Position numbers and translations under genes: made by a program
In this document: piece after piece, positions 1,287 to 8,625 of the stretch
Layout: each line of letters opens with the position of its first letter
How positions within the stretch are numbered: the stretch's first letter is position 1
Notes under the pieces: generated by a model
What the model saw: only the letters and a program-made list of their open reading frames with translations
Database searches by the model: none
What the model was told of the DNA's origin: nothing
IMG/VR virus record: IMGVR_UViG_2695420817_000017
Strand: one strand, 5' to 3'
Source of the DNA: a virus
Lineage: Duplodnaviria; Heunggongvirae; Uroviricota; Caudoviricetes
Length of the DNA stretch: 9,864 nucleotides

Positions 1287-1670
1287 TCAACCAATCAGCT
1301 TATAGCGACCTTCCCGTGCATTGCGGCGTACACGCTCAATCTTGAGGCATAGCGCCGCATCTGGCTTTTTTGGGACAGATACGCGGCAATATTCAGAAGC
1401 GCGAGGGATATTATTTATCCAGTCAATTACTTCACTTAAATACCATGCCTTACGCCCCTCAGTAACCTGAACACGCTCAGGAAACTCACCACGGGCTTCA
1501 AGGTTTAACAAAGTTCGACGGCTAAGGGTGGTCAGTTCCATAACCTGGTTCATATCTACCAGGCGTTCGCTTAAGCGCATTTTGTCAGCAATAGCCTTTA
1601 ATTCCTCTACTGCTGGATCCGGATACATCATTTCGGCAATTGGCTTAAGGTCATTGTAATGATTCTGCAT
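1287..1670 (-). CDS. AlpA/excisionase-like HTH domain protein (127 aa), function unassigned
   Basis: ATG at 1670..1668 preceded by AAGGGGGAT, 4 nt after the decoration-gene stop, so probably co-transcribed. The central segment LTTLSRRTLLNLEARGEFPERVQVTEGRKAWYLSEVIDWI fits the AlpA/Xis (HTH_17/MerR-like) DNA-binding pattern. Ends ~55 bp before cosN. Confidence 0.6.
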   Translation of the reverse strand: MQNHYNDLKPIAEMMYPDPAVEELKAIADKMRLSERLVDMNQVMELTTLSRRTLLNLEARGEFPERVQVTEGRKAWYLSEVIDWINNIPRASEYCRVSVPKKPDAALCLKIERVRRNAREGRYKLIG

Positions 1671-3358: not shown

Positions 3359-3715
3359 TCAGTGGCCTGCCCCTGCTGGCCTTTTTTTGCCGCCCGGTCG
3401 CGCCGTTCGCGCACTGATTACGCTGTCTGCGATAACCTGCCAGCCCTGCCGCGTTTCGCCGTTCTGGCCTGTCCACTGGCTTACCTGCATGTTACCCGCC
3501 ACGCTCACCAGTTCGCCTTTGTGGTGTTTTGCCAGTGCGTCGGCCTGTCTGCCAAACGCCAGGACGGATAACCACATCGTCGCCGTTCCGTCATCTGCCT
3601 GGCTGCACGGAAGGGGGACCGCCATACTAGCCATCGCCATTTGTGTACCCTTGCTGATGGTCTTTAACTGCGGGTCAGCCACCAGCCGTCCGTAAGCCGC
3701 TATCTGTGCTGTCAT
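3359..3715 (-). CDS. SSB-like OB-fold protein lacking the acidic C-terminal tail (118 aa)
   Basis: ATG 3715..3713 with GGAGAG 8 nt upstream; start overlaps the stop of the upstream ORF (ATGA). YGRLVADPQLKTISKGTQMAMASMAV...WLSVLAFGRQADALAKHHKGELVSVAGNMQVSQWTGQNGETRQGWQVIADSV follows the bacterial SSB OB-fold pattern (G-L-DP..., W..V..FG..A...KG..V.V.G...W.D..G..R). C-terminus is basic (PGGKKRPAGAGH) instead of an acidic DDDIPF-type tail. Confidence 0.6.
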   Translation of the reverse strand: MTAQIAAYGRLVADPQLKTISKGTQMAMASMAVPLPCSQADDGTATMWLSVLAFGRQADALAKHHKGELVSVAGNMQVSQWTGQNGETRQGWQVIADSVISARTARPGGKKRPAGAGH

Positions 3716-3954
3716 GCTGTCTGCTCTCCGGTTTTAACGTTGATGGTTGTTACCTGTTCCGCTTCGGCAATCTCCCGTTCTGTCATCGTGGCAAAGTTTG
3801 CAGCTGCCGTTGTCATGAATGCGCTAATCAGTTCGGGATGTGCTTTCGCATATCCTTCCCCGGCGTTGCGGTCGATGATTTTTATCGCCACTCTCAGCCA
3901 GTGCTCTGTAAGGTCAATAGCGCGGTAGTGTGGTTGTTTGCGGTTTGCCTTCAT
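3712..3954 (-). CDS. Hypothetical protein (80 aa), translationally coupled to the SSB-like gene
   Basis: ATG 3954..3952, stop TGA 3714..3712 overlapping the next start. No family recognised. First gene after the iteron origin. Confidence 0.5.
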   Translation of the reverse strand: MKANRKQPHYRAIDLTEHWLRVAIKIIDRNAGEGYAKAHPELISAFMTTAAANFATMTEREIAEAEQVTTINVKTGEQTA

Positions 3955-3994
3955 AGTTCAGATCTCAATTTTTCGTATATATATACAAAACAGT

Positions 3995-4309
3995 GCGGGT
4001 TATGCGGGTTAGCGGGTTATCTTCGCTTGCTAAGTATTTTTTATTCCTTAATATCAATACATTACAAAATTAACTGTTTACTGTTTAGCCGTGGCGTAAC
4101 CCGCAAAATGCTCAAAATAACCCGCAAACGGGGTTTTTTCTGCGGGTTACGCGTGGCTGTTTGCTGTCACTTCCTGTTATTCATCTGCGGGTTATAATCG
4201 CACTTTTGCGGGTTATAACTGCCGTTTTGCGGGTTACGTGCGGGTTATTGATTTCCTTTTTATTCATGCAGTTAATGCACTTATACACAGAGTAACCCAC
4301 ATAACCCGC
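3995..4309. repeat. Iteron array (8-bp GCGGGTTA, about 13 copies in both orientations) flanking an AT-rich segment: candidate replication origin
   Basis: Direct copies at 3995, 4004, 4012, 4142, 4187, 4208, 4229, 4240; inverted copies (TAACCCGC) at 4097, 4118, 4302 and a variant TAACCCAC at 4293. AT-rich stretch 4020..4096, plus GTATATATATAC at 3974..3985. Begins 24 bp after the primase/helicase stop, the position PICI/P4-type origins occupy. Confidence 0.75.
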
Positions 4310-4332
4310 AACTTTTCACCTCACACAGGGGG

Positions 4333-6456
4333 TTAATCTTCTGCCTCAGGCTGGAACATCAGCACGTAAAAAACATGCTGCTTCCCCCCAATTTTGCCGA
4401 GAGCCTTTTTCTTGTAACGGCGATCGTTACCCGCTTCCAGCATTCCGGCAGCACTCAACGCGCGGGCAAAGTGGGACGGGTTAAATCCCTGTGCGATCTC
4501 CCCCTCAAACACATGAGGAAACGTGTAAAAACGGAACTCATCATCTTCATTTCTGATACTCCCCTTTCTGTATCCGGCAAGGTCTTTAATCGGTAAATCA
4601 CGTTCATCACTGTTTGGGTAAGGAAGGTATCGACTGAACCCGAACGACGACAAAAACGCCTCAGCCTGTTCAACCATCTGTTTAAATTCCCTGTTACCCG
4701 TGCCGAACTCCTTCACCCAGGCATTAAAGTTATGCTGTATTGCGTCCCGGCATTCCTGCGCGGCCCAGCCAGTTACATGACCGGAAAGCACAAGCGCGGC
4801 CTCCAGTATGGCGAAACGCTCACCCACGCGGTGGACTTGCTCGCCGTAGCTCTCCGGTATCAGGTTGCGCCACCGTTCGCGGCATTCCCTTACCGTATCC
4901 TTTGCCTCCTGCTGGTGGCCTGCCAGCCATTTAACCCACTCACGACCCGCTGCCCCGTGATTTTCTGTCCAGGCATCCTTTAACGCGTCTGCGTGCGCCT
5001 TTCCGGTGCTGTATTCGTGAAAGTGCGTGGCTTTTTCCATCGGAACGTTAAGCAGGCGGACAAGCTGCCCCGCTTTGACTTTTATCCCCTCCGTTTTGAG
5101 GAATGTCTCAACGTCCATTTCTCCGGTGCTGATTGCCACCGTGCGCCAGTGTTTTATCTCCCGGTTGCCGCCGTCCTTCGCCCCCTGTAATTTCCCGGAA
5201 CCGTTAAACAACGTATAGGCTGACGTGGACACCTCCCGCGCGTTTCCGGCCTGGCCTATTTCATCCAGGGGTAACAGCCCGTCGTTGTGCGCCTCTGCCT
5301 CGTTAGCGATACCTAACGCTGTGCCGTACCAGGTCAGCCGTTGTGCGTCCGGCTCTCCCCATAAACTTGATGCGATGTTCTGCGTGGTGGTTTTCCCTGC
5401 CGATGACTGTTCGAAAAGATGTACCCCAAAGCCGTCAGCACCAACAAGGCCAATCAAAGGTGCTGCCAGTGACGTGGCAACACCCAGCATCATGGACGGA
5501 TTGCCACCAGCCAGCCGCGCCACGCAGTCGCGCCAGCCCTCCGACGTACCCGCAACCGAATAGCCATTAACAGTGGCACTTTTTCCGGTAAACAGGATCG
5601 GTTTTTCAGAATCACCAATGATTGAGCCGTCCGGCATGATATACGCGCCAAAATGCCAGCCCGTTGTTGTGCTTAGCTGCCATTCCTCATGGCTTCCGCT
5701 TAACTGCATCCAGTCAGCCAGGATAGCCCTGTATTTGCCGTTTGTTGTCACGTTCAGCCCGTGATCTTTAAGCAACCGCCAGCCGTCACGGTCGCCAATG
5801 CCACCACACGGGATCGCCATTGTGATGACTTCATGGTTTGCTAATTTTTTCCAGCGCATCACGCGGTAATGCTCTTTACCGATCGTCCCCGTTCCCAGTA
5901 GTTCAAGCGGAGAACATAACCACGTCTCAGGCCGGATAATTTCGCCTGACTGCTTATCCACTTTGGGCGTTACCCAGAAAACACCATCGACGCGACTTTC
6001 AACGCGGGGCTTTAATTCATCATCCTGATAGCATGGCTCTTTTTTCTTTACAGGCAGTTCAACTACCTTTTTCTTTTCCGCCTGCTCTGCCCGTTCACGT
6101 TCCAGATATTCGCGCCAGTTCTCCCGTTTCTGGCTGTGCATTCCTTCAGGGTAATAATCAGCATCCCTGACACCTGCCGCTGCCAGTTTCTGCCCGATGG
6201 TATTAACAAGCCCCGGACGCAATAACCCCGCCTGATAGAGACGCACGCGATAGCGTCCGTCCGGTACGATTTGCAGGTTGTCCAGTTCGGCAAGTTGTTG
6301 CTCTCCAAGCCAGACAGGAGGCACGTTATCGCCAGCCAGTCGCCCGTCCTGTTCCTGCCACTGCTTCGCATGTGCCCACGCATCACTACCCGCAAAAATG
6401 ATGACTTCCGTCATTTTGTCACGCGGCTGGTGTTTTAAATTTGGCGCTTTTTTCAT
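4333..6456 (-). CDS. Primase/helicase-family replication protein (pri-rep, P4 alpha-like role), 707 aa
   Basis: ATG 6456..6454 with GGAGAGAG upstream; the track ORF starts 15 nt further up at GTG. Walker A motif FEQSSAGKTT mid-protein. Size, position after alpA and adjacency to the iteron array fit a satellite primase/helicase. Exact family not verifiable without a search. Confidence 0.85.
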   Translation of the reverse strand: MKKAPNLKHQPRDKMTEVIIFAGSDAWAHAKQWQEQDGRLAGDNVPPVWLGEQQLAELDNLQIVPDGRYRVRLYQAGLLRPGLVNTIGQKLAAAGVRDADYYPEGMHSQKRENWREYLERERAEQAEKKKVVELPVKKKEPCYQDDELKPRVESRVDGVFWVTPKVDKQSGEIIRPETWLCSPLELLGTGTIGKEHYRVMRWKKLANHEVITMAIPCGGIGDRDGWRLLKDHGLNVTTNGKYRAILADWMQLSGSHEEWQLSTTTGWHFGAYIMPDGSIIGDSEKPILFTGKSATVNGYSVAGTSEGWRDCVARLAGGNPSMMLGVATSLAAPLIGLVGADGFGVHLFEQSSAGKTTTQNIASSLWGEPDAQRLTWYGTALGIANEAEAHNDGLLPLDEIGQAGNAREVSTSAYTLFNGSGKLQGAKDGGNREIKHWRTVAISTGEMDVETFLKTEGIKVKAGQLVRLLNVPMEKATHFHEYSTGKAHADALKDAWTENHGAAGREWVKWLAGHQQEAKDTVRECRERWRNLIPESYGEQVHRVGERFAILEAALVLSGHVTGWAAQECRDAIQHNFNAWVKEFGTGNREFKQMVEQAEAFLSSFGFSRYLPYPNSDERDLPIKDLAGYRKGSIRNEDDEFRFYTFPHVFEGEIAQGFNPSHFARALSAAGMLEAGNDRRYKKKALGKIGGKQHVFYVLMFQPEAED

Positions 6457-7996: not shown

Positions 7997-8206
7997 TTAC
8001 ACTGCCTTACCTGAATTAATGCGATCCCGGCTTTTAACCCATTCCATAACCTCGGACAGCAGCCACCCTACAGAACGACCGCCCAGATTAAGACGTGACG
8101 GAAAGCTCCCTTTTTTCTCCAGTTCGTAGCGTGTAGTGCGACACACTCCAGTTAACTTACGACATTCATCCTCACGGATTACGCGATCTTCATTTATTTC
8201 ACGCAT
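7997..8206 (-). CDS. alpA: AlpA-family transcriptional regulator (phage/island HTH activator), 69 aa
   Basis: ATG 8206..8204; the track ORF extends to a GTG at 8293 through AT-rich, low-complexity sequence that looks like promoter DNA. ECRKLTGVCRTTRYELEKKGSFPSRLNLGGRSVGWLLSEVMEWV matches the AlpA signature (...FP.P.KLGGRSV.W...EV..W.). Classic position between int and the replication genes. Confidence 0.85.
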   Translation of the reverse strand: MREINEDRVIREDECRKLTGVCRTTRYELEKKGSFPSRLNLGGRSVGWLLSEVMEWVKSRDRINSGKAV

Positions 8207-8625
8207 ACAAAAACCTACATAAAAATTACGTATATAAACTTTTCTCTTAGCTGTAGATATATGAGATCGGATATTACTTAGATTCTTTTTCACCTCTTAA
8301 ATTAAAAACACAACCATGCTAAAGGCTTTGTTCGCTAAGGTTCGTAGAAGCTCGTTAGTGTTTAAAATCGTGTCACGAGTTTTTAAGCGACGCAACAAAA
8401 AATGTCGTCATTTGGCATGACACCTTAATTACCTCATTAAAAACAAATAGATAAACCATCAGGTGTTGGAACAATCAAGAAACAGAGAATAAGAACTCAG
8501 AAGAAGACATTTCAATTTTTTTCGATAGTTGACACATATAAAGAGAAGATATTTGCAGATATTCCCCGATATTCTAAGATCTATTCACGGCTGTAATCTC
8601 TTAAAGAAAAAACAGCCGTAATTTG
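8207..8625. promoter_or_regulatory. AT-rich intergenic region between int and alpA (probable alpA promoter/control region)
   Basis: About 420 bp of visibly AT-rich non-coding DNA with no credible ORF. Contains inverted repeat ACGGCTGT (8587..8594) / ACAGCCGT (8612..8619) just 3' of the int stop. No promoter hexamers assigned with confidence. Confidence 0.4.

Follow-up and report, generated by a model that had tools for sequence, protein, structure and literature searches.

The question raised by this locus is what role, if any, is played by a region that the annotation leaves blank. In an Escherichia coli chromosomal island, the gene for a DUF927 protein (Pri-Rep, hereafter also Rep) is followed by a 380-bp intergenic region that carries no annotated feature in the RefSeq records examined. 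Within this region, which runs from the DUF927 stop codon (4333-4335, minus strand) to the start of the next open reading frame (ORF) at 3954, a cluster of short repeats occupies positions 3995-4309 of the window (the whole 9,864-nt stretch of DNA that was analyzed, to which coordinates refer unless another locus is named). From comparisons of sequence, it is highly likely that a phage-inducible chromosomal island (PICI) of E. coli, integrated at cspD-clpS, has its vegetative replication origin in this cluster.

Judging from its gene content and from an integration site published for PICIs, the window belongs to an E. coli PICI, a phage satellite, and not to a P4-like element. Pfam and RefSeq annotation together identify an integrase, an AlpA-type regulator, a DUF4222 protein, the DUF927 Pri-Rep, an 80-aa ORF, and ssb, as well as lambda E- and D-type capsid genes and terS. 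All of these genes share the minus strand. E. coli AR_0077 contains a sequence 100% identical to the window, and in that genome the island lies between cspD and clpS, the listed site of the PICIs EcCIIHE3034 and EcCI18098; thus, int, alpA, pri-rep, unidirectional genes, and a PICI-specific att site are all found. A second AlpA-family (Phage_AlpA) gene, besides the int-adjacent regulator, is present within the capsid/packaging region (1287-1670, minus strand). The Pri-Rep protein itself is intact; clustered at 90% identity, it falls into a group (P0001) of 1126 member sequences. However, the SSB-family gene (3359..3715, minus strand) is annotated by RefSeq as frameshifted in the identical genome, so the island may be partly decayed. 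The region is present in about 300 of 5426 complete E. coli genomes. A 163-aa ORF with a GTG start on the plus strand (3706-4197) spans the left half of the putative origin; it is unannotated in the RefSeq records and most likely spurious.

The octamer GCGGGTTA occurs as 11 exact copies in the window, all of them inside 3995-4309, whereas 0.27 copies would be expected by chance and none of 200 shuffled sequences reached 11; the repeat cluster described in the original prediction is thereby borne out. Eight copies are on the plus strand (starting at 3995, 4004, 4012, 4142, 4187, 4208, 4229, and 4240) and three on the minus strand (4097, 4118, and 4302). Since ten of the 11 are preceded by T, which extends them to TGCGGGTTA, the unit is a 9-mer. 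A further copy with one mismatch, GTGGGTTA, is found at 4293-4300 on the minus strand; because three relatives have a perfect GCGGGTTA at this very place, it is counted as an iteron, which brings the number of credible iterons to 12. The approximate count of 13 first proposed therefore holds but for its last member: GGGGGTTA at 4328-4335 overlaps the Rep stop codon, is not conserved, has no counterpart in related origins, and was rejected.

The iterons form two adjacent modules, and in each module they converge on an AT-rich spacer. This differs from the original description of a single AT-rich core with three copies to its left and about ten to its right, since there are two such spacers (4020-4096 and 4248-4292). 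Read along the gene strand, the first iteron begins 23 bp past the Rep stop codon, and the order is a pair at 4309-4293, a spacer, four iterons at 4247-4187, a neutral spacer, single iterons at 4149-4142, 4125-4118, and 4104-4097, a second spacer, and finally 4019-3995. The proximal module consists of the gene-side pair (4293..4309, minus strand), in which TGCGGGTTA is followed in tandem by the degenerate TGTGGGTTA, an AT-rich spacer of 45 bp (4248..4292, 69% AT), and four plus-strand iterons facing the pair (4187..4247) at start-to-start distances of 21, 21, and 11 bp. An iteron-free spacer of 37 bp that is only 51% AT (4150..4186) separates this module from the distal one. On the inner side of the distal module (4097..4149) are the iterons at 4097 (minus), 4118 (minus), and 4142 (plus); its AT-rich spacer (4020..4096) is 77 bp long and 69% AT; and on its outer side (3995..4019, plus strand) three abutting iterons, spaced by 9 and 8 bp, face the copies at 4097 and 4118. 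Consequently, each AT-rich region is flanked by opposed iterons, at least two per side: two and four across 45 bp in the proximal module, and two (plus one) and three across 77 bp in the distal module. The last iteron is followed by an AT-rich leader (3955..3994, 75% AT) that contains TATATATATA and reaches to the start codon of the next ORF.

By nearest-neighbor energies, the segment 4035-4064 in the distal spacer shares the lowest stability of any 30-mer in the window, and it is here that melting would most likely start. The proximal spacer, at 69% AT, is among the least AT-rich of the first spacers across the family (range 63-91%). It also contains TTATACACA (4282-4290), which fits the DnaA-box consensus TTWTNCACA. 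This match is kept in four aligned origins of the GCGGGTTA class and missing at that position in the other iteron classes; a DnaA box was thus rejected as a family feature of the origin. Rfam and tRNA scans of the window gave no matches. The classical iteron plasmids (pSC101, F, R6K, and RK2, with initiators of the Rep_3 type) also have repeated initiator sites beside an AT-rich unwinding element, and there too the iteron defines specificity. However, their iterons are direct repeats of 17-22 bp, and their winged-helix initiator recruits the host proteins DnaA and DnaB, whereas the 8-9-bp iterons of the window converge on the spacer and their initiator is a putative helicase in its own right. 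With short iterons in mixed orientation, a DUF927 initiator, and a lone, unconserved DnaA-box match, the region was not assigned to the Rep_3-type plasmid origins.

Two of the iterons form a perfect 9-bp inverted pair, TAACCCGCA (4118-4126) and TGCGGGTTA (4141-4149), with a 14-nt spacer, exactly as originally described; we interpret this palindrome as two putative binding sites located where the modules meet. The pair had also been proposed to extrude as a hairpin and to terminate the Pri-Rep transcript. Read in mRNA sense, the palindrome can indeed form a stem of 12 bp around a 10-nt loop, followed by UUUU, the folding energy of an 81-nt region is -35.4 kcal/mol (z = -4.6), and P4 has an annotated terminator after alpha. 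Nevertheless, the loop (10-14 nt) is accompanied by a U-run of just 4, a consensus scan finds no terminator on the minus strand, the short hairpin is unexceptional (z = -1.9, with 8 of 200 shuffled sequences folding equally well), and a longer outer pair (4094-4108/4138-4152) competes with the inner palindrome for pairing. In 34 related two-module origins, moreover, the palindromic iteron pair is kept at 20-25 bp while the T-run is not, and the hairpin accounts for only two of the 12 iterons. The terminator role is thus unsupported, and it is extremely unlikely that an RNA hairpin, an intrinsic terminator of the Pri-Rep transcript, or a cruciform is the main function of 4118-4149, which may still act as a weak terminator in this particular island.

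That the cluster would instead serve replication is suggested by the known origins of other islands. According to Fillol-Salom et al. 2018 (PMC6092414), a pri-rep-ori segment of EcCICFT073 drove plasmid replication and needed both rep and ori to do so, and Gram-negative PICI origins with this organization were already published there. EcCICFT073 is the same kind of island as the window, and its origin lies directly 3' of pri-rep, with two tandem iterons, an AT-rich spacer of about 45 bp, inverted iterons, and a second iteron group. The two differ in the protein, which in EcCICFT073 is a 584-aa member of the "DNA primase family" and not a DUF927 protein, and in the iteron, which is CTGTCTACC there and TGCGGGTTA here; the allele for which origin activity was tested is that of EcCICFT073. 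EcCIIHE3034 and EcCIATCC25922 share its 584-aa Pri-Rep, its iteron CTGTCTACC, and the same layout. The RepA-type alleles of EcCI042 and EcCI11128 are accompanied by AAAGTGAGG or AAAGTGGGG, and the 607-aa Pri-Rep of EcCIRM13514 by CTGTTCACC, with its origin at 8055-8300 of locus L010. A distinct repeat at the same position for each of these E. coli Pri-Rep alleles indicates that each Rep allele has its own iteron; the fourth Pri-Rep allele of PMC6092414, that of E. coli ED1a, lay outside this comparison.

The iteron of the window is also found in O157 strains. Element Sp7 of O157 Sakai, the counterpart of the capsid-forming PICI EcCIEDL933, encodes a Rep that is 89% identical to that of the window, with an identical C-terminal motif, and has 11 copies of GCGGGTTA in the same arrangement. 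EcCIEDL933 is reported to replicate upon helper induction, and the paper in question gives no description of its origin (bioRxiv 10.1101/2022.09.08.507074). A literature text search for GCGGGTTA returned unrelated primer matches only, and a search for iterons of DUF927-type PICIs found no text that describes them. The novelty claimed for this origin can extend at most to its iteron sequence, because origins of the same type are in print (PMC6092414), while the claim of an iteron-type origin 3' of a replication gene, with a specificity of its own, is supported by the comparative evidence. 

The protein encoded beside the repeats is consistent with such a role. The Pri-Rep gene (4333..6456, minus strand; 707 aa in RefSeq) specifies a putative initiator and self-loading helicase. 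Pfam identifies DUF927 (E 4e-47) at residues 173-440 of the 712-aa ORF (5 should be subtracted for the 707-aa numbering) and nothing else, that is, no primase, D5_N, or Pox_D5 domain. Residues 223-607 match the "Pathogenicity island protein" of PDB entry 8tch (8tch_A, E 6e-15) and also the SCCmec Cch helicase 5dgk; by this homology of its core, Rep is related to the SaPI Rep/Cch self-loading hexameric helicases. Residues 1-150 (window 6007-6456, minus strand) have no Pfam match even at E 10. Since no primase domain can be recognized in this N-terminal part, the "primase" half of the "primase/helicase" label first given to the gene is without support, while its position next to the repeats and its helicase homology stand. 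The first ~125 residues are closely similar to those of the EcCICFT073 Pri-Rep (BLASTP gives a 231-residue alignment with 50% identity), and no similarity between the two proteins was found beyond the N-terminal part. At the other end of the protein, the last 105 residues have a match to the Pfam family HTH_56, "Cch helix turn helix", that is below the Pfam cut-off (E 5e-4); the same family is matched at E<=0.01 in five of 19 relatives. PDB sequences searched with a profile of the C-terminal domain gave no meaningful match, and an AlphaFold2 model of the C-terminal 149 residues (from a 40-sequence alignment) was discarded because of its pLDDT of 46.

SaPI Reps are self-loading helicases that bind their iterons via a C-terminal winged helix (PMC9371898). 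Like the window, the SaPIs have an origin immediately downstream of rep, in which at least two oppositely pointing iterons lie on each side of an AT-rich region (PMC9371898); the Rep core is homologous, and the region of specificity is C-terminal, as is suggested here by the HTH_56 match and by the covariation discussed below. Their iterons are shorter (5-6 bp, in 6-12 copies, as opposed to 12 copies of 8-9 bp in two modules), the window comes from a Gram-negative host, and its Rep has an extra N-terminal domain of about 150 aa that is common to other E. coli Pri-Rep alleles. Very probably, then, the origin in the window belongs to the known PICI/SaPI-type origins, with iterons matched to the island's own helicase.

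In origins that are 84% identical to that of the window (O157 strains and SF-468), the iterons remain exact and in place while the spacers diverge: between the window and such an origin, 93 of 96 iteron columns are identical, compared with 206 of the 271 other columns (Fisher p=1e-6). We take this as a sign that both modules are under selection. A comparison of the iteron across related islands, which the original prediction had proposed as a check, was made with 80 loci encoding Rep homologues, species representatives across Enterobacterales that were retrieved by means of an alignment of Rep homologues. In 73 of the 80, the first 450 bp past the stop codon carry 4 to 13 copies of one 8-9-mer, with the same pattern of orientation; the proximal module is present in all 73 and the distal module in many of them as well. 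The repeats fall into 17 iteron sequence classes. The commonest is GTTGGTTCA, others include GTTGTCTCA, GTCGGTTCA, ACGGGTTA, GTGGGTTA, and CTTATCCCA, and the GCGGGTTA class is confined, within the survey, to E. coli. Across the family, neighbors in the same orientation are spaced by 9, 11, 21, or 42-43 bp, and convergent pairs that span the AT-rich spacer by 44-46, 51-55, 63-65, or 73-75 bp, successive values being about one helical turn apart. A layout that stays fixed while the repeat sequence varies is as expected for an array recognized by a protein.

The part of Rep that would do the recognizing appears to be its extreme C-terminus. When pairs of homologues with matched core identity are compared, the last ~87 residues are 0.66-0.70 identical within an iteron class and 0.44-0.47 between classes, and a sliding window places the peak at residues ~670-700 (0.81-0.86 within and 0.37-0.46 between); the same comparison for residues 150-300 shows no effect of iteron class. 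The covariation of iteron class with the last ~35 Rep residues is suggestive and does not amount to a formal test, since the compared pairs are phylogenetically related and thus non-independent. The motif at this position is RRYKKKALGKIGGKQHVFYVLMF in the Rep of the window and RGYQRKSPRIDGRQINVYVL in Reps of the GTTGGTTCA class. The iteron GTTGTCTCA occurs with two distinct C-terminal motifs, ending in RGYQGRVREDGRQIRVYVL (L041/L046/L058) and in RSYQGKTPRLKHLGGIQQRAYIM (L064/L065/L069/L088), which may represent convergence on one specificity.

Short repeated sites in mixed orientation are known from operators too, and the cluster stops 40 bp short of the next co-oriented ORF, beside the TATATATATA stretch. 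The repeats could accordingly be read as an array of operator sites at which the 80-aa protein, an AlpA-type regulator, or a merely autoregulating Rep would control ssb and the capsid genes downstream, and not as an origin. The 80-aa ORF (3712..3954, minus strand), to which no function is assigned, follows the origin in most relatives. However, the repeat sequence follows the Rep allele and the Rep C-terminus rather than the downstream genes, the proximal module is present without the 80-aa gene in a one-module locus (L004), no σ70-like promoter was found in 3600-4700, and the same layout is an experimentally supported origin in EcCICFT073. An operator in place of an origin is thus very unlikely, although binding of Rep may have a regulatory side-effect. 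A role in packaging (pac/cos) was likewise considered and rejected, as the same iterons are found with three packaging modules (those of the window, of L002/L096, and of L005) and always after rep.

For the favored reading, that of a replication origin, the following sequence of events can be proposed. Upon induction of the island by a helper phage, the DUF927 Pri-Rep, encoded just upstream, would bind the iterons with a helix-turn-helix/wing region at its extreme C-terminus. Once bound to both flanks in helical phase, it would melt the AT-rich spacer and load itself there as the replicative hexameric helicase, in keeping with the model proposed for SaPI Reps. The iteron sequence would set the specificity of the replicon, other Pri-Rep alleles or family branches using other iterons in the same layout. 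Binding of Rep to TGCGGGTTA, melting, and origin activity are each inferred.

P4 offers another way to view a block of iterons behind a replication gene. P4 itself was rejected as the nearest relative: a BLASTP comparison of the window Rep with P4 alpha gives no significant similarity (E 0.12), the Rep of the window is related instead to the SaPI Rep/Cch helicases, and the P4 type-1 repeat TGTTCACC, present in 11 copies in P4, is absent from the window, so that the iteron was correctly said to differ from the P4 octamer. The P4 iterons are octamers in mixed orientation that are bound by the C-terminus of the primase-helicase. As in the window, an iteron region (crr, two 120-bp modules) is situated directly 3' of the replication gene, alpha; unlike the single 315-bp cluster of the window, P4 has its sites at two places, ori and crr, which lie about 4.5 kb from each other. 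The iteron CTGTTCACC of EcCIRM13514 contains TGTTCACC, so that specificity of the P4 type also occurs among PICIs, with another Pri-Rep allele.

By analogy with P4, in which alpha is directly followed by crr and not by ori, the cluster in the window could be a crr-like cis enhancer, or else a decayed or duplicated relic, with initiation taking place elsewhere or in one module only. A single, proximal module does suffice in many relatives, and there are other islands that carry an orphan distal module. Yet GCGGGTTA is absent outside the cluster throughout the whole island and the 18.5 kb surrounding it, leaving no second candidate site, and the iterons of both modules are kept in the 84%-identical relatives, as would be expected under selection. 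We consider this alternative quite unlikely. A division of labor, in which one module is the origin and the other is auxiliary in the manner of crr, may nonetheless apply and is compatible with the cluster being the origin.

One-module origins are found in the second island of E. coli 042 (L004 2940-3149) and in many of the loci L030-L094. They have only the proximal module (two iterons, an AT-rich spacer, and three or four iterons) after the DUF927 gene, followed directly by ssb; the 80-aa ORF is absent from L004, and the distal module and this ORF appear to be gained or lost together. The reverse case, a distal module by itself, is seen in E. coli K-15KW01 (L003 3001-3183, the same as L006 16001-16183), where the sequence matches window 3966-4130, the homology beginning within the AT-rich leader. 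This orphan has three direct iterons, an AT-rich spacer, and three inverted copies of TGCGGGTTA, and its host is a PICI with a CFT073-type Rep, CTGTCTACC iterons, and no DUF927 gene, in which it lies about 330 bp in from the clpS-side end. About one quarter of the sampled E. coli matches are partial ones of this orphan kind.

These results leave the current picture of PICI replication unchanged. They give a putative function to a 380-bp intergenic region that had seemed "empty", and they link TGCGGGTTA to the DUF927-type Pri-Rep, which is common to classical PICIs and to the capsid-forming PICI of O157:H7. The survey, with one layout, 17 iterons, and covariation in the last ~35 residues, can be used to test how self-loading helicase-initiators recognize their origins, and it could yield small replicons that are mutually orthogonal. 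Most worth following are the family-wide covariation of iteron and C-terminus and the orphan modules. Taken jointly, a compact C-terminal recognition code, a separable crr-like distal module, and orphan modules that act in trans make up a speculative and, on balance, rather doubtful proposal. Were the code real, a few wing residues (RRYKKKALGKIGGKQHVFYVLMF in the window) would switch Rep among at least 17 iterons while the helical phasing is strictly kept. Were the orphan modules active, they would be decoys, incompatibility sites, or origins for a co-resident island, and would thus amount to competition between satellites.
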